64,000 bases of DNA. Origin: a bacterium. Lineage in GTDB: Bacteria > RBG-13-61-14 > DATKZS01. The notes under the pieces are model-generated. The model made no database searches and was not told where the DNA came from. It saw nothing but the letters and a program-made list of their open reading frames with translations. Each line of letters opens with the position of its first letter. Within the stretch, counting starts at the first letter, position 1. The stretch is taken from NCBI GenBank assembly GCA_963674965.2, contig CAXXFL010000001.1:992001-1056000 (forward strand), given 5' to 3'. Positions 9,343 through 19,703 of this stretch are shown piece after piece. The translations under genes were made by a program, and so were the position numbers.

Positions 9343-10904
9343 AAAGGACTTCGGCCGCCATGCTCGCGGCGGGGCTTATTTTGCTTTTCGGCCTTAGCGC
9401 CCGGGCCTATTGGATTCAGCACCGTCTGGTTAACGACCTTTCCACTCCCGAGCAGTTCCTTCCCGCCCCGGACGGCTCGAGGCCGGGACCGGCAAATCCT
9501 CCCGCTCCCGTCACCCTCGAGATACTCCCCCTCCCGCCGGGCGGCAACGACGACCTGATTGAAGCCGCGGCCAGGGCCGTTTCAAACTGGGACCTGGTAG
9601 CCGGCTCCGCCCTCAACCTTTCGATATCGACGCCTGGTCCAGGGGACTTATACGACCCCGGCTGGGCGGACCGGTACTATAATGAAGACGGCAGGAACAC
9701 CATCGAGTTTATCATGGAGGGCTGGCCCGATTTCCTCGGCCCGAACGTCATCGCCATGACGGTTCCTCACGCACGGGCGGACGGCGCCATTGCCGAGGTG
9801 GACATATTCTGCAACGTCGAGAACTTCAGATGGGAGGCATTCGAAAAGGACGGCTATTTCCCGGGCCTGGCGGCCGAGCGCTGGGTGGACGCGGAGTCCA
9901 TATTAACCCACGAGCTGGGACACGTGGCGGGTCTTGGCCATTCCCAGAAGTTCTGGGCGAGCATGTATTATCTTCCGGGCCTGGCCGACACTCGGGCCCG
10001 GCTTCTCACCTCGGACGACGAGCGGGCCCTCAGGTTTCAGTACCCGGCTAGGGAGGAGGACGTTCCTCCGCCCAGCCCCTGGGCCGCGGCGGCCGATACC
10101 TTCGCGGACGGCCAATGCGGCGCTTCTTTTATCTCGCTTCTTTCCTATCCGGTATATTTCGATGAAAGGATAATTATAACCTCACCCGAAGACCCGTCCA
10201 TTCCGCTTTGCGTATTCGGCTCGGGTTTCTACTCCGACCGCTCTATCGACATGGACCTTTCCCGCGCCCGGGACTCGCTCGGACAAATCGACGGCGAGGA
10301 GACGATCGCTCCCAACTTCGCTCGCGGTATAATCCGGAACGAGGAGGGCGGATACGATATATTGGAGGAAGGGTCGTACAACGTGGACATGTACTATGGC
10401 CCGGGTGAGGCGGGATCGCTTCTCGACGGCTTCATCAAAAACCCCGCGGGAAACGACCCGCCGACCGCGATAATAGAAGCGGACCGGGACGTGGTGGGCG
10501 TGGGCCGGGTAGTGAGACTTTCCGGTGAGGGGTCCTTCGACCCGGACGGCGCCGACCTTTCCTATTCATGGTCCGTGGTCGAGAGCCCGGGAGAAGCGAC
10601 CGCCATTCTCGATTCATCCGAATCGGCCACCGTAAAGTTCAAAGCCATAAGGCAGGGCCTCTTCGTGATAAGGCTTTCGGTTAACGACGGAAGCGTCTCG
10701 GGAATTGCCGATCAGGTCCTTATACGCGTAACCAACGCCGACGTGGTTTCCGGCGGAGAGGAAGACTTCAATCCCTGGGGTTGCTGGATAGGGGAGGCCC
10801 CTGGCCGCTCATGGCTTATATGCCTGGTCCCGTTTGTCCTGGTAACGTTGGCCAGGGTTTTGTCGCTTTTTCAGTGGGATAGGAAGCGCCCGCGGTCAGG
10901 GTGA
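9339..10904 (+). CDS. Matrixin-like (metzincin) metalloprotease with PKD-like domain and C-terminal anchor
   Basis: HELGHVAGLGHS zinc motif, Met-turn ASMY, PKD-like GSFDPDGADLSYSW, C-terminal GC + hydrophobic helix + basic tail. Confidence 0.88.
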   Translation: MKRTSAAMLAAGLILLFGLSARAYWIQHRLVNDLSTPEQFLPAPDGSRPGPANPPAPVTLEILPLPPGGNDDLIEAAARAVSNWDLVAGSALNLSISTPGPGDLYDPGWADRYYNEDGRNTIEFIMEGWPDFLGPNVIAMTVPHARADGAIAEVDIFCNVENFRWEAFEKDGYFPGLAAERWVDAESILTHELGHVAGLGHSQKFWASMYYLPGLADTRARLLTSDDERALRFQYPAREEDVPPPSPWAAAADTFADGQCGASFISLLSYPVYFDERIIITSPEDPSIPLCVFGSGFYSDRSIDMDLSRARDSLGQIDGEETIAPNFARGIIRNEEGGYDILEEGSYNVDMYYGPGEAGSLLDGFIKNPAGNDPPTAIIEADRDVVGVGRVVRLSGEGSFDPDGADLSYSWSVVESPGEATAILDSSESATVKFKAIRQGLFVIRLSVNDGSVSGIADQVLIRVTNADVVSGGEEDFNPWGCWIGEAPGRSWLICLVPFVLVTLARVLSLFQWDRKRPRSG

Positions 10905-12668
10905 GGGGATCGCCTCCTCGTCGATAAGCTCCCAGATTTCCACAGCGTGCTTGTCCACCTCATGGACGAATAATCCCTCCCTTTGGCTTTGCGCCAGTTT
11001 GTCGGCCGAGTCCTCGTCCATGACCTTTATCTGGCCCTCGTCATCTTTTCCCGACAGGATGGCCTTGACGGCGTAGGCCCTGGTGAACCATTCGGCGTTC
11101 TTGATCGGCCCCTCCACGGCCTCCCACCACTCGGCCGAGTGGTGAAGGACTAAAAGCTCGGGTTTATATTCCCTTATCCACCAGGTCATGTCGCCCATGG
11201 CCAGCATGCCCGCCGCGCCGGGCGTGGGTATGCCGCATTGATCGATGATTAGCATATCGGGCAGGTAATAGCCCAGAACTCCAATCTCGTGGGCGCCCAC
11301 GGACGAGACCTCGGGCGCGTTACCGCTGATCCACTTGGCGGTGGCGCGATAATACTCGTACTGAGTGCCGGGAATCTGGGTCAGATTCAGATAGGAATTC
11401 CAATGCCTGGGCAGATAGGCCGAGGCCACGACGGCGATGGTCACCATCGTCACCGCAACCGCGTGGTTGCGAAGGCGGGGCAAGCACATGGCCGCGCCTC
11501 CCATGATAATCGCCGCGTATCCCAGGGCGTGGCCAAGATGGATGGGGTTAAAGAGCTTGCCGATTATGGGAATAAAGCCGGTGGTGGCGGAAAATAGCCA
11601 GACCGTCAGGCAAGCGGCCCCCGCGATAACGAAGGAACCGCAGGGCTCGAGGGAGACGGAAAGACGGTTCACTGCCCGGCCCGCCCCTATGCCCAATACC
11701 ACCGCTCCCATCACGTGCAGGGGAGCGAAATACCAGGTATAAGGCGGGACCTTAAGCACGACGCCGTAGGCCAGAAGATGGAGAAGCGCCCATAAAAAAA
11801 TAAGGATAGGCCAGGGCTTTCGGTTTCTAATCGACCAGTAAAAGCCCGTTCCCACGCAGACGGCTATTATGAGTCCCGTTAGGTCGGGCGGCCATAAAAA
11901 GTTCTTTATGGTTTTATACAGAGCGAAAAGGAACATCCACTCGTTGCCCCAGTGTCCGCCGGCCGAACTCTGGGAAATTTTGACGGATAGGGTATGGGGA
12001 AGAAGCTGTCCGAAGTACAGATATGAGAAAATAAACCAGGGCGTGACCACTAAAACGGGGGCCAGAATGGAGGCGAGGGGCGGTGGCTTTCTCTCCTTGA
12101 TCAGATAATGGCCGAGCGCGAGAAAGCCCAGAATGGCCGCGTCCATCCTGACCATGACCGCCAAGCCGAACAAGGCGCCCCCCAGCGTCATCTTGCCCCG
12201 AGAATAAAAATAAAGGCCGGCCGAGCATGCCGCCACAAGAAGGCCAGTTTCCAGGCCCATGCTCTGGAGGAGCTTGGGGTGGACCATGACCAGCATGCCC
12301 GCCAGGTAACCGCCAGGATAAATCTCGTCGTCGTTTAAAAGTTTCCCCAAAAAGATGGCGCCGAGAAATAGCCCGAACATGGTCAAGGACGCGCCTATCT
12401 GGCGGAAACCGGCCCCCGTAATCCGGTGGATGGCGGCCAGGGTCGCCGTGGAGAAGGGAGAGGTAACGGCGTTGATCTTCTCGCCCGGATTGTAGACCCA
12501 GCCCTTGGCGTCGGCAATGTTCCGGGCCACGCGGTAGGTAATAAAAGGATCGTCAATGGCGTACCTGTTGAATCGGTAGCCGATGGCGATTCCAAACACG
12601 ACGGCCACGGCGAGCCAGATAAGGTCACGACGATTGATGCGAGTATAAAAACCGGATAACGTTGGCAT
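10896..12668 (-). CDS. Polytopic membrane protein, GT-C-like glycosyltransferase
   Basis: IDDPFITYRVARN acidic loop after the first TM helix, GLET and RMD motifs, many TM helices. Confidence 0.7.
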   Translation of the reverse strand: MPTLSGFYTRINRRDLIWLAVAVVFGIAIGYRFNRYAIDDPFITYRVARNIADAKGWVYNPGEKINAVTSPFSTATLAAIHRITGAGFRQIGASLTMFGLFLGAIFLGKLLNDDEIYPGGYLAGMLVMVHPKLLQSMGLETGLLVAACSAGLYFYSRGKMTLGGALFGLAVMVRMDAAILGFLALGHYLIKERKPPPLASILAPVLVVTPWFIFSYLYFGQLLPHTLSVKISQSSAGGHWGNEWMFLFALYKTIKNFLWPPDLTGLIIAVCVGTGFYWSIRNRKPWPILIFLWALLHLLAYGVVLKVPPYTWYFAPLHVMGAVVLGIGAGRAVNRLSVSLEPCGSFVIAGAACLTVWLFSATTGFIPIIGKLFNPIHLGHALGYAAIIMGGAAMCLPRLRNHAVAVTMVTIAVVASAYLPRHWNSYLNLTQIPGTQYEYYRATAKWISGNAPEVSSVGAHEIGVLGYYLPDMLIIDQCGIPTPGAAGMLAMGDMTWWIREYKPELLVLHHSAEWWEAVEGPIKNAEWFTRAYAVKAILSGKDDEGQIKVMDEDSADKLAQSQREGLFVHEVDKHAVEIWELIDEEAIPSP

Positions 12669-12920
12669 GATTTTCTTAAAATATAATAGCTCACGCCATC
12701 TTCTTTGGCAACGTAAAAATAGGTCCCTTTTTTCCTTGATCAGATGAAGGGGCCTTGGCCGAGGTAAGCCCGGGAGGCATTCCTTACTTTCATTACCAAG
12801 GCGGAGTCATTCTTGTATTTTCTTCGATGCCCGTTTTTGATTCGAGACTTAAAATCTGATAACTTCGATATCGCCCGCCGTCTTGACGGCCCTGAATTTC
12901 AGGTCATTAAAGGATATCGA

Positions 12921-14060
12921 ATGGATTCCTTTTTATCGGAAAAACAACGCCTGGTCCGGAGGTCCGCACGCGCTTTTTGCGATCGCGAGTTGGCCCCCAT
13001 CGCCAAGGACGTCGATCAGGAAGCCCGCTTTCCCTGGGAAGTGGTGGAAAAAATGGGCAAGCTGGGCTATTTCGGCCTTCAGGTCCCGGCCGAGCTTGGC
13101 GGCTCGGGCCTTGACTCGATAAGCTCGGCGATCGTGGTGGAGGAGGTATCGCGGGCCAGCGCCGGCGTGGGTCTTTGCGTTTCCGTCCACAACGCCGTGG
13201 CGGTATATCCTATTTTGGCCTTTGGGACCGATGAACAAAAGAAAAGGTTCATACCTGCCCTGGCCCGGGGCGAGAAGATCGGGGCCTTTTGCCTTACCGA
13301 GCCCAACGCCGGCTCCGACGCCTCGGGCATCGAGGCCTCGGCCATACGGGACGGCGGCCATTTCGTGGTCAACGCCAACAAGGTCTACGTGACCAACGGC
13401 GGGGCGGCCGACGTTTTCCTCATCTTCGCCCGCACCGATCCCAAGGCGGGCCGCAAGGGCATCAGCGTGATAATAGTCGAGCGCGGCGCCCCGGGCCTGG
13501 TGGTGGGAGACCTGGAGGACCTGTGCGGGATGCGGGCCAACCCCGTCAGCTCGGTTCGACTTTACGACTGCCGGGTCCCGGTGGGGAACCTGCTCGGCAA
13601 GGAGGGGCAGGGGCTGAACATAGGACTGGCCGGCCTGGACGTGGGCAGGATCGGAATAGCGGCCCAGGCCCTGGGGATCTCCCAGGCGGCCCTCGAGGCG
13701 GGCATAAGATACGCCAAGCAGCGGAGGCAGTTCGGGGCGCCTATCGCCAAACACCAGGGCATCCAGATGATGATCGCCGACATGGCCACCCAGGTCGAGT
13801 CGGCCCGGCTCATGATTTACAACGCGGCCGCTCTCAAGGACAGTGGGGCGCCCTTTGGACGTCAGGCGGCCATGGCCAAGCTTTACGCCTCCGAAGTATC
13901 GAGCAAGGTCACGGACGCGGCCATCCAGATACACGGGGGCTATGGTTACTCGAAATCCTACCACGTCGAGAGATACTATCGCGACGCCAGGGTAACCAGG
14001 ATTTACGAGGGCTCGGCCGAGGTCCACAGGATGGTCATCGCCAGGGGAGTGCTGACGTGA
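12921..14060 (+). CDS. Acyl-CoA dehydrogenase (short-chain/butyryl-CoA type)
   Basis: FCLTEPNAGSD, GRIGIAAQALG, QIHGGYGY, IYEGSAEV; start chosen at the ATG after AAGGA. Confidence 0.95.
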   Translation: MDSFLSEKQRLVRRSARAFCDRELAPIAKDVDQEARFPWEVVEKMGKLGYFGLQVPAELGGSGLDSISSAIVVEEVSRASAGVGLCVSVHNAVAVYPILAFGTDEQKKRFIPALARGEKIGAFCLTEPNAGSDASGIEASAIRDGGHFVVNANKVYVTNGGAADVFLIFARTDPKAGRKGISVIIVERGAPGLVVGDLEDLCGMRANPVSSVRLYDCRVPVGNLLGKEGQGLNIGLAGLDVGRIGIAAQALGISQAALEAGIRYAKQRRQFGAPIAKHQGIQMMIADMATQVESARLMIYNAAALKDSGAPFGRQAAMAKLYASEVSSKVTDAAIQIHGGYGYSKSYHVERYYRDARVTRIYEGSAEVHRMVIARGVLT

Positions 14061-14100: not shown

Positions 14101-14886
14101 ATGAACGTAATCGCGTGCGTCAAGTCAGTCGTCAAGGTCGGCTCGGTAAAGGGGCTCAAGTCCCGCGCTCCCATTGAAAGGGGGCCGGAGGGTACCGAGC
14201 TTAACCCGTTCGACCGGGTCGCCATCGAGGCCGCGCTCCGGCTGAGGGAGGCCGGCGGCAAGGTCACCGCCTTGTCCATGGGACCCGAGGCCGCCTCCGG
14301 CGCCTTGATGGAAACCATGGCCATGGGGGCGGACGGCGGCGTTCTGATTTGCGATCCGGCCATCGCCGGCTCCGATACTCTAGCCACATCCCGCATCCTG
14401 GCGGCGGCGATCAATAAGATCGGGGATTTCGACCTTGTGCTCTTCGGCGTACGGACCTCTGACAGCGACACGGGACAGGTGGGGCCGCAGGTGGCCGCGG
14501 CGCTGGGACTACCCTTTATCGGGGCCGCCATGAAAATTGAGACCGACAAGGAAGGGCTGAGGGTCGACCGGTCGGCCGACGGTTTCCTCGAGACCTACCG
14601 GCTCCGTACGCCGGCCGCCATAAGTCTACATCCGGCCTCGTCCGCGCCTCGCGACGTTCCCTTTGGCGGCATAGAAACAACGTACGCCTCGGGGAAAATC
14701 ACCAGGTGGGACCTGGCCGACCTGGGACTTGGTCCCGCCCAGGTGGGATGGAACGGGTCCCCCACCCGGGTCCTCAACATGGTCGGAGTGGAACGGGACA
14801 GGAAGTGCGAGTTCCTCGAGGGTTCTCCCGACGAGAAGGCCGAGGCCCTGGTGAAAAAACTTATCGGCTCCGGACTGATCGGATAA
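14101..14886 (+). CDS. etfB: Electron transfer flavoprotein beta subunit
   Basis: MNVIACVK, LNPFDRVAIEAAL, GSDTLATS, DSDTGQVGP, GSPTRV. Confidence 0.93.
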   Translation: MNVIACVKSVVKVGSVKGLKSRAPIERGPEGTELNPFDRVAIEAALRLREAGGKVTALSMGPEAASGALMETMAMGADGGVLICDPAIAGSDTLATSRILAAAINKIGDFDLVLFGVRTSDSDTGQVGPQVAAALGLPFIGAAMKIETDKEGLRVDRSADGFLETYRLRTPAAISLHPASSAPRDVPFGGIETTYASGKITRWDLADLGLGPAQVGWNGSPTRVLNMVGVERDRKCEFLEGSPDEKAEALVKKLIGSGLIG

Positions 14887-14928: not shown

Positions 14929-16551
14929 ATGAAGGACGGCGGCGAAGTTTGGGTATACTGCGATCTTAGAAGCGAGCGGCTTTTCGGGCTGAGCCTGAAG
15001 ACCCTGGCCAAGAGCAGGGGACTGGCAGGAGAGCTGGGCGTCAAGTGCGTGGCCCTCCTGGCGGGATCGTCCCAAGGCATGCCCGGCGGATGCGAGGGCC
15101 TGGCCATGTCCCGCCTGGACCTGGAAGACGCGGCGCAAAAGCTGATCGGCCACGGCGCTGACGAGGTCTACGTGATGGACGACCCGGCCCTGGCCACGCC
15201 CAGGACCGACGTTTACGCCGGCATGATGAGCTCGCTTATCAAGTTTTACAAGCCCCGCCTGGTGATCTTCGCTTTGACCGACTTCGGCCGGGAGGTCGCC
15301 GCCATGGCCGCCTGGACGCTGCAAGTCGGCCTCATCTCCCACTGCGTCGACCTTCGGGTGGACGAGGGAGGAATAGTCGCGAGCTGCCCGGCCTGGGGCG
15401 GCGAGGTCATGGCCGAGATTTATTTCGCCAAGGGCCAGAAGACCGGCCTCGCCACCCTTGCCCCCCACGCCTTCACCGCCGTCGAGGCGGCGGGCGACCC
15501 GGGACTGGTCCGCATGATCGACTCGATCGATATCGCGTGCTCCGGCGGGGCCGAGCTGGTTTCCTGCGCTCCCCTTTCCCGGCGGGAGGGAAGCATCGAG
15601 GACGCCGAGGTAATAGTGTGCGGAGGCGCCGGTCTCGGCGGCGTCGAGGGCTTCAGCCTGGTACACGACCTGGCCCGGGCCATCGGCGGCGAGGTCGGGG
15701 CCACCCGGCCGCCGGTCCTCCAGCACTGGGTCGAGGAATCGAGACTGATCGGGCAGACGGGCAAGACGGTCCGTCCCCGCCTCCTCGTTTCAGTGGGAAC
15801 CTCCGGCGCCGTGCAGTACACCGCCGGCATAGCCGAGTCGGGCTACGTGGTGGCCATCAACCGCGACCCCGAGGCGCCCATCTTCGAGGTGGCCGACCTG
15901 GGAGTGGTGGCCGAGGCCAAGTCGTTCCTGCCCATGGTGACCGACCGGGCCAGGAAAGCCCTGATGAGGAAACTGGCCGACCTGCTCGGCGAGGGACGCG
16001 GGCCCGCCGAGGAAGGCGATAAAAGCTTCGGCGCCAAGGTCCGGGCCATGCGGGAGGCCCACGGCATGAGCGTTATCGACATGTCCAAGGCCACGGGCAA
16101 GTCTCCCGAGTTCATCGGCCAGGTCGAGAGCGGGGAGGTCACCCCCTCGGTCAGCTTCCTGCTCAGTCTCGCCCGCGCCCTGGGCGTGGACCCCAGCGCC
16201 TTTTTGACCGACGAGGAAAAGACGAAGCTGAAGGACGCCCGCTCCCAGGCCTTCCAGACCCGGACGCAAAACTACAGCTACCAGACCCTGACGCCCGGGG
16301 CGTCCAACGAGCATCTGCGCGCCTTCATGATAACCATCGAGCCCAAAAGCGCGCACAAACCCGTGGCCTACAAGCACGAGGGCGAGGAGTTCATCTTTAT
16401 TCTGGAGGGCGAGCTGGAACTAAGGCTCGGGGAAAAGGTCCATCACTTAAAGCCCGGCGAGAACATCCACTTCGACTCCGAGATACCCCACAAGCTCAAA
16501 AGCCTGTCGGACGATCCCACCAAGTGCCTGGTGATTCTCTATACGCCATGA
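14929..16551 (+). CDS. etfA: ETF alpha subunit fused to XRE HTH and cupin domains
   Basis: EtfA motifs GATRPPV, IGQTGKTVRP, GTSGAVQYTAGI, AINRDPEAPIFEVAD, followed in frame by FGAKVRAMREAHGMS...PSVSFLLSLARALGV (XRE) and HEGEEFIFILEG...HFDSEIPH (cupin). Confidence 0.92.
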   Translation: MKDGGEVWVYCDLRSERLFGLSLKTLAKSRGLAGELGVKCVALLAGSSQGMPGGCEGLAMSRLDLEDAAQKLIGHGADEVYVMDDPALATPRTDVYAGMMSSLIKFYKPRLVIFALTDFGREVAAMAAWTLQVGLISHCVDLRVDEGGIVASCPAWGGEVMAEIYFAKGQKTGLATLAPHAFTAVEAAGDPGLVRMIDSIDIACSGGAELVSCAPLSRREGSIEDAEVIVCGGAGLGGVEGFSLVHDLARAIGGEVGATRPPVLQHWVEESRLIGQTGKTVRPRLLVSVGTSGAVQYTAGIAESGYVVAINRDPEAPIFEVADLGVVAEAKSFLPMVTDRARKALMRKLADLLGEGRGPAEEGDKSFGAKVRAMREAHGMSVIDMSKATGKSPEFIGQVESGEVTPSVSFLLSLARALGVDPSAFLTDEEKTKLKDARSQAFQTRTQNYSYQTLTPGASNEHLRAFMITIEPKSAHKPVAYKHEGEEFIFILEGELELRLGEKVHHLKPGENIHFDSEIPHKLKSLSDDPTKCLVILYTP

Positions 16552-16659
16552 GGAAGGCCCAAAGGTTACCTTCACCGCGGCATGTCCCAGAAGGGATCGG
16601 ATTCGAATAGCCGCGTTCCTTGCCTGCGAAACGCGTCAAATCTGAAAAGAGAGAATTTC

Positions 16660-17808
16660 ATGCGAAGCATCTACCTTGACCATAACGCCACGACCCGGCC
16701 CGATCCTCTGGTGGTCGAGGCCTGTCGGGAGGCCTTGGAGGAGAGCTGGGGCAACCCCTCGAGCGGGCACTGGCACGGGAAGAAGGCCCGGGCCGTCCTG
16801 GAGGGGGCCAGGGAGGAGGTGGCGTCCCTGCTCGGGGCCAGGGCCTCGGAAATCCTTTTCACCAGCGGAGGGACGGAGGCCAACCACCTGGCCCTGGTGG
16901 GCGCTTTCCTTCACCCATCGAGAAAGATCGAGCGCGTGGTGGTCTCGGCCATCGAGCATCCCTCCGTGCTCGAGTCCGTCTCGAGCCTCAACTCTCACGG
17001 CGTCGAGGTAGTCGAGATAGGAGTGGACCGGAAAGGCCGGGTCGATCCCGAGGAGGTGGGCGCGGCCATAATCGGCGCCAACGCTTTAGTCACGGTCATG
17101 GCGGCCAACAACGAGACGGGCGTGATCCAGCCGATCGGGGAAATCGCGTCAATCTCGAGGGCCAAGGGCGCCCTGTTCCACGTTGACGCCGTGCAGTGCG
17201 TGGGCAAGATAAAGGTGGACGTGAACGATTGGGACGTGGACCTATTAAGCCTGGCGGGCCACAAGTTTTACGGTCCCAAGGGCGTGGGTTGTCTTTTCAT
17301 CCGTGAGGGAACGGCCATAAGTGGCGTCAACGTTGGCGGCGGCCAGGAGCGGGGACTGCGAGGAGGCACGGAGAACGTTCCCGCCATAGCCGGGCTGGGG
17401 GCCGCGGCGCGCCTTTCGCGGGAGGGGCAAAAGGATTGGGAGCCGCGCATGGCAAGCCTTAGGGATGAATTCGAGAGGACGCTTCTCGACAATATCTCTG
17501 ACGCCAAGGTCCACGGCGACCGGGACCACCGGCTTCCCAACACCTCGAACATGTCCTTTATGGGGGCCAATGGCGAGGCGGTCATGCTCGAGCTGGACCT
17601 GGCCGGCGTCCGCGTCAGCACCGGCTCCGCCTGCCACGCCGGGTCATCGGGGCTGAGCCGCGTCCACCGGGCCATGGGGCTGTCGCCTGAGGAGGGCGAG
17701 GCGACGCTCAGGTTCTCGCTGGGAAAAGACACGACCGCCGAGGAGCTGGAGACGGCGGCGGGCCTGGTTATCAAGTCGGTCGAAAGGATTCGAGCCATCG
17801 CCGGCTGA
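16660..17808 (+). CDS. Cysteine desulfurase (IscS/NifS family)
   Basis: IYLDHNATT, FTSGGTEAN, AANNETG, PLP lysine in AGHKFYGPKG, STGSAC. Confidence 0.95.
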   Translation: MRSIYLDHNATTRPDPLVVEACREALEESWGNPSSGHWHGKKARAVLEGAREEVASLLGARASEILFTSGGTEANHLALVGAFLHPSRKIERVVVSAIEHPSVLESVSSLNSHGVEVVEIGVDRKGRVDPEEVGAAIIGANALVTVMAANNETGVIQPIGEIASISRAKGALFHVDAVQCVGKIKVDVNDWDVDLLSLAGHKFYGPKGVGCLFIREGTAISGVNVGGGQERGLRGGTENVPAIAGLGAAARLSREGQKDWEPRMASLRDEFERTLLDNISDAKVHGDRDHRLPNTSNMSFMGANGEAVMLELDLAGVRVSTGSACHAGSSGLSRVHRAMGLSPEEGEATLRFSLGKDTTAEELETAAGLVIKSVERIRAIAG

Positions 17809-17813
17809 AGAGA

Positions 17814-19703
17814 TTATTCGTTCCAGCCGTAATCGAGGCTGATGACGGTCTCGCGCCGAGGGTCCTCGATTCCGATGAAGCCGACGGGGTCGTCCCCCAT
17901 CATGACCCTGACCAGGCGGCTGGGAGGAGCGGCCCGTAGCCTCGGGTGCCAGTGATAGGAAATCACCACCCTCCCCTTCGCGGGAACCACGTTTTTTAGA
18001 ACGATCCGGTTGAAGTCGGTATAAGCCTCGCCGGAGCCGACAAGGAAAAAGGAAGTCTCCCGCTTGACCTTGTAGAAGGCCACGCCTCCGGCCTCTCCGC
18101 TTCGCTCGAACAGCCCGGGAAAATCTTCAAGCAGCTTCTTCGCGCCTTTTGTCGAGGCCCCGGCCCAGGCCACGTTGTAAAGGTCCATGGCCTCGGACAA
18201 TGAGCGCTCGTCCCATTCCCCGAACCTCTTGCCGAAAAGCGTCGCGCCCGAGAAATCTGCGTGATGGTGCAGAAGGTGAGTCATCCAGTGGGGTCCCCCA
18301 ATAATTTCCCTGCCCGAATAATAAGCGATAGGCGCGGCCGGGAAAGTGTCGCCGTGCAATTTATTGAAAGGCCCCCTGTCCTCGAGCAGAAGCCGTCCAC
18401 TCCGGTCGGTGTTGTTTTCGGCCCACCGGATAACCTTGGCGAGAGATTCGGGCATTCCCACCAGTTTAGGGCCGCCCAGAATAATCAGCTTAAGGGGAGA
18501 CGCTAAAAAGACGATCAGCGAAAAACCGGCAATCAATAGCCCGGCGCCTCTGGCCTTGAAAGAAAATCCGCCCGCGGAAGACCTCCATTGTGAAATCCAC
18601 GCCATGAATCCCTCGGCCGCCGCCGGACAAAGAAAGAACAAAAGCGGCAGGCCGTACCTTGACGGCTGGGTCTTGTCGATTACGGGTAAAAGGGAGCCGA
18701 AGAAGCAGATGATAAATAGACCCAGGAAAGTCCACAAGGTCATATGGAAGAGGTCGCTCTTTTGTGCGATTTTAAAGCGCCTTGCGCCGGAGTAAGCGGC
18801 GAAAGGCAGGACCCAGACGATGAACTGAAGCCCCGAGAGGCCGTCCGCGAAAATGGCCGCGATCAAGGGCGCGGGATTCTGAAGGTGTGAGGTCGATGGA
18901 AAGGCGAACCGAAGATTCATCCATTGCGGAAGAATCCATAGCAGGTTGGCCATGACCGCCAATAAAGCCGAGAGCGCGATGGCGGCGTGACTTGACGGCT
19001 TGAGTGACCTGAAGCGGAATATATAAAGCGTCCCGCAGGGAATGACGATAATCGGCGCCACGCCGGGATGTATAAAAAGGGCCAGGGCCGCGGCCGCGGT
19101 AAGGGCGATGAAATTCAAAGCCGATATCCTTAGCAGAAAGCGGTTGAAGAGCCCGGCGAAAAAGACCGCGTAAGCGCCGGCCAGCCCGAAGCCGACCAGT
19201 CCCACCTGGAAGGTCGCCGCTCCCCCGCCGGCCCACCATGCCCATGTCCCGATCAGGGCCGAGGCGGCCGAGGATTCTTTTCTCATGCCCAAAAAGACCG
19301 CGCCCAGGTAAAACAGGGGCGCCGCAGCGAAAGCCATGGCGAAGACTATCAGCTTGTACGCGGTCTCGGGCCGGGCCGATCCGGCCAGGGCCATGCAAAG
19401 CTTTATCGTCCGGTCGCTGGTGTCGAAGACGTCGGTCGGGTAGCCGGCCATCATGTACGGGTCGTAGCCCCAGGTCTCGAGGTGGTCGCGCAGTAAATTT
19501 CCTCCCACCACGCCGTAGTAAAAGTGCCAGGAGTGATCGTCATAAAGCATGGGCTCGGAAGAAAGAATCTTGCCGGGTCCGCCGAAAAAAGCGATCAGAT
19601 ATATAAAGTGAAAGGCGAAGGTAAAGATAACCGCCGCTCTCGCCGGCCATGCGCCTCGGCTTTCGGAAGTTTCTTTTGAATTGTCGATACCCCGGTCGTT
19701 CAT
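17814..19703 (-). CDS. Polytopic membrane protein, probable GT-C-like glycosyltransferase
   Basis: YDDH acidic loop, WGYDPYMMAGYP, many TM helices, soluble C-terminal domain. Confidence 0.6.
   Translation of the reverse strand: MNDRGIDNSKETSESRGAWPARAAVIFTFAFHFIYLIAFFGGPGKILSSEPMLYDDHSWHFYYGVVGGNLLRDHLETWGYDPYMMAGYPTDVFDTSDRTIKLCMALAGSARPETAYKLIVFAMAFAAAPLFYLGAVFLGMRKESSAASALIGTWAWWAGGGAATFQVGLVGFGLAGAYAVFFAGLFNRFLLRISALNFIALTAAAALALFIHPGVAPIIVIPCGTLYIFRFRSLKPSSHAAIALSALLAVMANLLWILPQWMNLRFAFPSTSHLQNPAPLIAAIFADGLSGLQFIVWVLPFAAYSGARRFKIAQKSDLFHMTLWTFLGLFIICFFGSLLPVIDKTQPSRYGLPLLFFLCPAAAEGFMAWISQWRSSAGGFSFKARGAGLLIAGFSLIVFLASPLKLIILGGPKLVGMPESLAKVIRWAENNTDRSGRLLLEDRGPFNKLHGDTFPAAPIAYYSGREIIGGPHWMTHLLHHHADFSGATLFGKRFGEWDERSLSEAMDLYNVAWAGASTKGAKKLLEDFPGLFERSGEAGGVAFYKVKRETSFFLVGSGEAYTDFNRIVLKNVVPAKGRVVISYHWHPRLRAAPPSRLVRVMMGDDPVGFIGIEDPRRETVISLDYGWNE

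Follow-up and report, generated by a model that had tools for sequence, protein, structure and literature searches.

A helix-turn-helix–cupin module fused to the electron-transferring flavoprotein alpha subunit of an apparently bifurcating-type acyl-CoA dehydrogenase cassette

Electron-transferring flavoproteins (ETFs) are usually taken as pure electron carriers, the known variations on their architecture being ferredoxin-like extensions. The described systems closest to the locus considered here are C. difficile Bcd/EtfAB (5OL2), CarCDE (6FAH), A. fermentans EtfAB (4KPU), LctBCD (7QH2) and T. maritima EtfABCX (7KOE), which resemble it in the gene set acd (encoding an acyl-CoA dehydrogenase, ACD), etfB and etfA, and which two sources describe as electron-bifurcating (PMC6085437; PMC10734219). 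Their alpha subunits carry neither a helix-turn-helix (HTH) domain nor a cupin; CarE and LctC differ in having N-terminal extensions (chains of 396 and 418 amino acids (aa), matched from residues 71 and 115). A helical, HTH-like domain and a cupin do share one chain in (S)-2-hydroxypropylphosphonate epoxidase (HppE, 1ZZ6), HEPD and MPnS. According to PMC9088020, which names Glu142 of the enzyme, HppE is a non-haem Fe(II) homotetramer that combines an all-helical domain with a cupin and uses H2O2, and its helical domain does not bind DNA. Stand-alone XRE-cupin proteins, such as the PuuR type, 1Y9Q and proteins of about 180 aa encoded beside ACD genes, join HTH_3, a connector and Cupin_2 as free proteins. 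Finally, PutA-type trigger enzymes are flavoenzymes with their own DNA-binding domain; in PutA this is an N-terminal ribbon-helix-helix, and membrane association is the switch.

Here we describe a gene that brings features of these systems together. It lies in a 64,000-nucleotide stretch of bacterial DNA, called the window throughout (GenBank assembly GCA_963674965.2, contig CAXXFL010000001.1, positions 992,001 to 1,056,000; GTDB lineage RBG-13-61-14, DATKZS01), and it encodes an entire ETF alpha subunit (EtfA) followed by an XRE-type HTH and a cupin. Directly upstream are acd and etfB, and, as judged from sequence comparison, the fusion apparently supplies the alpha subunit to a Bcd/EtfAB-like flavoprotein system of the bifurcating type. 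Since the EtfA chain carries an HTH-cupin module typical of small regulators, the enzyme complex appears to have its own sensor. In its architecture the fusion resembles PutA: a flavin-dependent redox protein and a DNA-binding fold occupy one polypeptide, encoded in or near an operon that it possibly regulates. Unlike in PutA, the added part is C-terminal, consists of an XRE HTH and a putative metal cupin, and is borne by a non-catalytic electron carrier subunit. The gene is laid out as follows (window positions; source in brackets).

14929..16551, + strand: etfA-HTH-cupin fusion gene, ATG start, 540 aa plus stop (open reading frame list, Pfam, relatives)
14950..15489, + strand: EtfA domain I, Pfam ETF, residues 8-187 (Pfam)
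15595..15831, + strand: EtfA domain II, binding flavin adenine dinucleotide (FAD), Pfam ETF_alpha, residues 223-301, including Tyr297 at the signature-His position (Pfam, alignments)
15916..16026, + strand: C-terminal EtfA helix (330-354), then variable linker (355-366) (AlphaFold 2 model, conservation)
16027..16212, + strand: XRE-type helix-turn-helix, residues 367-428 (HTH_3, HTH_31)
16213..16308, + strand: connector helix and strand, residues 429-460, with the invariant NYSYQTL motif (family alignment)
16309..16548, + strand: Cupin_2 barrel, residues 461-540 (Pfam, alignments)

An earlier note, made from the letters alone, had described a single 540-aa open reading frame holding EtfA, a short linker, an XRE HTH and a cupin, and that description was borne out. 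The frame opens with ATG and contains the linker that the note had quoted, ALMRKLADLLGEGRGPAEEGDK, and all four Pfam families score above their gathering cut-offs: ETF at 88.9 bits over residues 8-187 (PF01012, cut-off 26.7), ETF_alpha at 95.7 bits over residues 223-301 (PF00766, cut-off 27), HTH_3 at 45 bits over residues 371-423 (cut-off 23) and Cupin_2 at 60.3 bits over residues 467-536 (cut-off 27.2), with HTH_31 matching in addition at 42.4 bits (cut-off 27). The EtfA part, with domains I and II, is complete as the note had claimed, because residues 7-340 align with residues 71-390 of the 396-residue CarE chain (6fah_A). The HEGEE...PH cupin residues that it had pointed out are H483, E484, G485, E486, E487, P520 and H521, each invariant or at least 90% conserved among 50 fusion-family members. 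In an AlphaFold 2 model (overall pLDDT 77.8), EtfA ends in a helix (330-354) and confidence falls below 50 at residues 357-362, so that the linker, residues 355-366, is predicted to be a disordered tie between the module and the end of EtfA. An internal translation start at Met346 was considered and rejected: a Shine-Dalgarno-like sequence precedes it in 3 of 23 loci and precedes 35 of 245 other internal Met codons, and among the six loci where Met was not found, at least five have Leu, the sixth (L033) being too divergent to tell. Current databases name the fusion ‘FAD-binding protein’ or give it the names of both halves.

A reading of the gene as an artefact, in which an assembly or sequencing error fused two genes into one open reading frame, is refuted for practical purposes, and we leave it next to no probability. 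The best 120 of 2190 relatives, found among 8000 scored candidates, come from many independent assemblies, and all 120 show ETF, ETF_alpha, an HTH family and Cupin_2 in one chain (520-551 aa, 52-61% identity, 97-100% coverage). The earlier note had named a stop or frameshift at the junction as a result that would refute the fusion; none appeared, either in a spanning contig or in 47 matches from a single order. The contig, of 1006 nt, matches 15387-16392 with neither a differing letter nor a gap (two runs, one sample); these sole read-level data are given little weight and do not count as independent, because the sample may be the assembly's own source. We see no positive point in favour of an artefact.

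The order-level matches also show how far the fused form has spread. Among 301 sampled species genomes of the Desulfobacterales-type order that contains locus L024 (a metagenome-assembled genome (MAG) labelled Desulfatitalea), the fusion occurs in 47 at E <= 1e-80, in single copy and with no internal stop; 44 of these matches reach from query residue 7 or earlier to residue 539-540, and three are shortened N-terminally. The window's own GTDB phylum is represented by 13 genomes in the collection, three of which, all from the window's family, have the fusion. Clustered at 50% identity, the family comprises five full-length representatives plus fragments. To the question, also raised by the earlier note, of whether relatives keep two genes, the answer is nearly always one gene; the exceptions among the representatives are a 362-aa EtfA of the fused clade without the module and a 202-aa module alone, with a recognition helix of the fused type. 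These are rare split or shortened forms that may be frameshifts. Two further representative proteins (P0149 and P0140) have part of an ACD, or a signal-peptide-like segment, joined straight into the middle of the HTH, and are probably assembly chimeras or deletions. The window's fusion is 54-60% identical to fusions of MAGs labelled Desulfobacterales, though it comes from a different phylum with 13 species genomes. The patchy spread of the cassette suggests lateral transfer as one unit.

The assignment to the bifurcating type (group 2) comes from comparison with solved structures. Biochemically, this class is defined by a second FAD in EtfB and by a coupling of NADH-dependent ferredoxin reduction to that of enoyl-CoA. 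For the EtfA part, the top five solved structures belong to CarDE, A. fermentans EtfAB, C. difficile Bcd-EtfAB, T. maritima EtfABCX and LctBC (E 4.8e-50 to 4.4e-43), against 2.2e-27 or worse for the AMP-containing ETFs that do not bifurcate. EtfB behaves likewise, with 5ol2_B at 9.1e-40 followed by 6fah_B, 7qh2_B, 4kpu_B and 7koe_A (down to 1.4e-29), against 4.5e-20 or worse. The bifurcating ETFs outscore those of human, Paracoccus and Methylophilus by 15-20 orders of magnitude. Moreover, the best solved relative of the cassette ACD is 5ol2_C, the Bcd of the C. difficile Bcd-EtfAB complex (2.6e-119), so that bifurcating complexes supply the best or near-best solved relatives of all three window proteins. 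Garcia Costas et al. 2017 reportedly define motifs for the ETF groups. Acryloyl-CoA reductase AcrABC (NF042970-72), the source of the closest NCBIfam models, was rejected as an identity for the three proteins, with AcrC at 462.5 against a cut-off of 640, AcrA at 165.7 against 600 and AcrB at 143.6 against 475. The window's genome additionally has three ordinary etfBA pairs.

In one respect the fused EtfA departs from its bifurcating relatives. In the bifurcating complexes, CarE included, the bracketed position of the flavin-domain signature G.SG..Q[H]..G is His, whereas the window's protein has Tyr297 there (15817-15819). Among 108 module-bearing proteins with the signature, 106 have Tyr, two Phe and none His; among the 91 proteins with neither module nor Tyr, 86 have His, four Phe and one Leu. 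Another 18 proteins without a detected module have Tyr, and each of the eight listed among them is a fusion-family member or a fragment that had escaped the module pattern. The fused clade, with Tyr and rarely Phe, does not carry the signature His of ETF alpha subunits. As we take this His to contact the electron-transferring flavin, its replacement by Tyr may retune that flavin in the fused clade.

Every part of the fusion is under purifying selection, judging from mean pairwise identities in an alignment of 50 fusion-family members. The EtfA domains stand at 0.52 (residues 1-200) and 0.69, and the block 346-366 is the least conserved segment (0.39); the module is at 0.65 in the HTH, 0.71 in the connector and 0.75, the highest value, in the cupin. 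Within the HTH, the window's putative recognition helix reads KSPEFIGQVE, where the family consensus has SPEFIEQVE. Of the residues on the surface that would read DNA, R375 and E400 are invariant, and P393 and E394 reach at least 90% conservation. The connector has invariant Y449 and Y451, in a motif that aligns with YYVYNCL of HppE. The cupin has near-invariant H476 and H514, and its H483, E487 and H521 are invariant both in the 50 fusions and in all 12 rows of an alignment of fused and stand-alone modules, which makes them a putative 2-His-1-carboxylate metal site. H483 and E487 align with the H and E of HAGNEF in HppE, and H521 with the H of vPH; for the HppE metal ligands other than its glutamate, the numbering is presumed here.

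The fusion is part of a genetic unit, as the earlier note had observed when it described an acd-etfB-etfA operon: acd and etfB lie directly upstream on the same strand.

12669..12920, no strand: intergenic region between acd and a divergently oriented gene for 590 aa (open reading frame list)
12921..14060, + strand: acd, short-chain (butyryl-CoA type) acyl-CoA dehydrogenase, 379 aa, start set at ATG 12921 from alignments (Pfam Acyl-CoA_dh_N, _M, _1)
14101..14886, + strand: etfB, ETF small subunit, 261 aa; the mechanical open reading frame starts at TTG 14086 and alignments put the start at 14101 (Pfam ETF, 130.3 bits)

The context of relatives was surveyed by tblastn with the window proteins on 27 fusion loci of named MAGs plus two from the window's phylum. 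Where the upstream sequence extends for 2.3 kb or more, as it does in 25 loci, the order acd-etfB-fusion was found in 24; three shorter loci have etfB up to the contig end, one of them also with a cut acd, one more locus is uninformative, and one (L010) has neither acd nor etfB within 6 kb of the fusion. Apart from shadow open reading frames lying over the cassette genes, all-against-all clustering of the flanking frames gave no other neighbour common to three or more of the 27 loci. The genes acd, etfB and etfA::HTH-cupin are a self-contained three-gene cassette with variable flanks. Its most conserved member is the ACD, which is 56-76% identical to the ACDs of 22 relatives (mean column identity 80%). 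The ACD of one MAG (L094:5468-5470, genome G005) has an in-frame TAG at the position of invariant Gln249, where CAG is expected; this is a sequencing error or a pseudogene of that MAG.

A link between the module and ACD genes extends beyond the fusion. Fused modules and stand-alone proteins of about 180 aa have in common the subfamily signature RTQ.YSY.TLTP...H...YKHEGEEF...G.S.HF.S...H, the stand-alone relatives being 38-45% identical to fusion residues 355-540. In 10 of 15 stand-alone loci examined, the gene lies directly beside and co-directional with an ACD paralog (L003, at G000:C1:1371044-1374595 in the window's own genome, L087-L092, L067, L071 and L085). This pairing holds in all seven stand-alone loci of the window's phylum, with about 10-30 bp between matched segments, and the paired ACDs are 41-47% identical to the cassette ACD. 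The stand-alone XRE-cupins paired with ACD genes form a subfamily whose function is likely shared. Four other loci (L047, L050, L052 and L055) lie among genes for rubrerythrin, a DUF4124 aspartyl protease, a UbiE-type methyltransferase and a GNAT protein, a neighbourhood that may indicate an oxidative-stress link, and the remaining locus has no informative neighbour. Furthermore, a maximum-likelihood tree of 44 modules (L016 dropped as too short; midpoint root for drawing only) places the 29 fused modules in one group with support 87/79, or 100/99 for the 28 rows without the long-branched L033, and makes this group sister to the seven stand-alone proteins that adjoin ACD genes in the window's phylum (90/84). 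The tree is therefore most simply read as one fusion event, in a lineage that was by then linked to ACD genes. The interpretation offered by the earlier note, a trigger enzyme with PutA-like logic, is supported in part. The functional connection between module and ACD/ETF system that it implies is well supported, because every part of the chain, HTH and cupin included, is conserved by selection and the stand-alone relatives adjoin ACD genes; its PutA-like switch, in which ETF flavin state or assembly would gate DNA binding, is a proposal taken up below.

What the module does can be read in more than one way. The best reading, which we hold tentatively and with somewhat less than even confidence, is a built-in metal- or ligand-sensing XRE-cupin DNA-binding regulator tethered to the EtfA of a bifurcating-type Bcd/EtfAB cassette. 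Its cupin would bind a metal through H483/E487/H521 and, with the metal, a small effector, which could be an acyl-CoA pathway metabolite or a redox- or oxygen-derived signal, and its HTH would bind DNA as an oligomer and control transcription, the simplest target being the cassette itself. Being part of the EtfA chain, such a regulator would be made in fixed proportion to the ETF and would move along with it, and a cassette carrying its own regulator makes sense. Consistent with this are the normal HTH_3 score, the conserved helix surface and the closest solved chain to the module, 1y9q, whose deposited title is that of a transcriptional regulator of the HTH_3 family (profile E 3.2e-20; Foldseek 3.9e-12); neighbours in the ESM Atlas are generic stand-alone XRE/Cupin_2 clusters. 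Several results weigh against a regulator. The recognition helix lacks basic residues in the consensus and in most members, although the window's own opens with Lys391, whereas the helices of stand-alone relatives carry R, K or Y (for example, SQRYLKEIE), and the net charge of the fused HTH averages -2.2 (n=50, range -6 to +2) against -1 to +3 in nine stand-alone relatives. Cupin and connector are better conserved than the HTH, which is unusual for a regulator. PuuR (NF007408) scores 51.8 bits against an NCBIfam cut-off of 211, and the functionally characterised solved proteins nearest in two-domain fold are the iron enzymes HppE, HEPD and MPnS, not regulators. Since the recognition helix hardly varies, an autoregulatory operator common to the cassettes ought to have been visible, and a search of 250-300 bp upstream of acd (22 loci) and of the acd-etfB spacers by exact 5- and 6-mer dyads, shared k-mers and expectation maximisation with and without a palindrome constraint gave no motif common to the cassettes. 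Palindrome-constrained expectation maximisation on 250 bp of the 22 loci returned weak motifs whose positions were inconsistent (7.9 bits of information, and a log-likelihood ratio of 31.1 where four shuffles gave 22.6-23.7), TGAA-N-TTCA lay upstream in 2 of 22 loci with at most one mismatch (the shuffles for both preserved mononucleotide content only), and ATATCGAA occurred in cassette non-coding DNA of only 4 of 24 loci. By eye and without statistics, no shared palindrome was seen upstream of eight stand-alone XRE-cupin genes. A literature search found no experiment on any fusion-family member; a full-text search, supplements not included, found no paper on the fusion, and the searches made found no tested function for a stand-alone XRE-cupin of the close subfamily.

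Several of these points favour a module that does not bind DNA, a serious rival account to which we give somewhat less weight than to the regulator. The module would then be a metal-cupin domain like HppE, with a helical part for oligomerisation or ligand binding, and would act on the ACD/ETF directly, as an allosteric or anchoring subunit, as an O2 or peroxide sensor protecting or stopping the flavoprotein, or through a small catalysis on a pathway intermediate. The module profile matches HppE (1zz6) over its whole length (E 9.1e-12, positions 4-180 against 4-196) with the His/Glu/His and Tyr motifs aligned, and in Foldseek HppE entries (about 1e-9), then HEPD and MPnS (2.7e-8 to 6.1e-7), rank right behind 1y9q. 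The acidic or neutral recognition helix, the stronger conservation of cupin and connector and the failure to find an operator fit this account too, as do the tight, co-directional pairing of stand-alone relatives with ACD genes, as often seen for enzyme partners, and the four stand-alone relatives that adjoin rubrerythrin genes. Yet 1y9q is closer than HppE, the HTH scores as an ordinary HTH_3, identity to HppE is 16-18% with TM-scores of 0.31-0.36, and nothing in the cassette ties it to phosphonates, whereas HppE belongs to a phosphonate pathway and has no flavoprotein fusion. The triad does not decide the matter: 1y9q has a His, a Glu and a His that fall on or close to its positions in the alignment, so that it fails to separate regulators from enzymes and argues for a metal site, not for catalysis. 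A predicted complex of two ACD copies with residues 355-540 scored 0.00 in both runs, which were made without controls, and says nothing either way. Improbable, in our view, is a neutral fusion, in which a local XRE-cupin repressor gene after etfA lost the intervening stop and the halves stay independent, passing no information. The linker, disordered in the model and the least conserved segment, the presence of stand-alone module forms in the same genomes, and the 362-aa EtfA and 202-aa lone module all agree with such an origin. Against it, the fused form is kept down to 37% identity and is found in single copy across 47 of 301 sampled species of one order, as well as in 3 of 13 genomes from another phylum; split forms are rare; and both the recognition-helix sequence and the Tyr-for-His change in the flavin domain are peculiar to the fused clade, which suggests that the halves evolved together. 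Readings other than a regulator, an HppE-like domain, a neutral fusion or an artefact share a similarly small probability. Returning to DNA binding, the regulator may also be gated by the enzyme, a proposal we consider rather unlikely: the ACD-EtfAB complex as a whole would be a redox- or substrate-gated transcription factor, in which domain docking or flavin state, with the metal site, gates DNA binding. With the HTH-cupin suspended from EtfA's mobile FAD domain, the input would be either the docking of that domain onto the dehydrogenase or the state of its flavin, which the clade-specific Tyr297 would tune; together with the metal site, this input would decide whether two modules pair and bind DNA. 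In a variant, an Fe-cupin would sense O2 or H2O2 and switch off an oxygen-sensitive bifurcating flavoprotein.

Some observations concern the non-coding DNA of individual cassettes. In the window only, a 13-nt palindrome, CCTGAATTTCAGG, lies at 12891-12903 and 9-nt complementary arms at 12864-12872 and 12913-12921, marking 12669..12920 as holding a candidate operator or leader of this genome. An RNA element in the leader found no support (the fold of 12855-12930 has z = -1.84, and 12 of 200 shuffles fold as well), and Rfam gave no match within the window. The 16-nt sequence TTAAAGGATATCGAAT is identical at window positions 12907-12922, where it overlaps the acd start codon, and at L012:1635-1650 in an acd-etfB spacer; L025 and L028 have related AATATCGAA repeats in their long spacers, for four of 24 loci altogether. 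The acd-etfB spacer itself ranges from under 20 nt to 633 nt (L028:4553-5185) and is repeat-rich in some cassettes, long or variable spacers being listed for L028, L025, L014, L017 and L029.

Three further genes border the cassette in the window.

16582-17808, + strand: NifS/IscS-type cysteine desulfurase, starting 30 nt after the fusion
10896-12668, - strand: predicted membrane protein, 590 aa, without a Pfam match, flanking the cassette
17814-19703, - strand: predicted membrane protein, 629 aa, without a Pfam match, flanking the cassette

A NifS-like gene lies beside the cassette in none of 27 relatives, which places it outside the unit. The 590-aa membrane protein also stands upstream of and divergent from the cassette in L094 (46% identity).

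An HTH and a metal cupin on EtfA, together with a clade-specific change next to the flavin, point to a direct line from an apparently bifurcating acyl-CoA redox module to gene control, or to a new accessory chemistry on an ETF. If the gated proposal were true, this would be the first flavin-based electron-bifurcation machine to report its own electron flux to the genome. The fusion family is compact and widespread in sulfate-reducer-type MAGs, and its three genes form a self-contained, co-expressible cassette, which makes the question directly testable. It also offers a functional lead for a larger, uncharacterised subfamily, the stand-alone XRE-cupins paired with acyl-CoA dehydrogenases.

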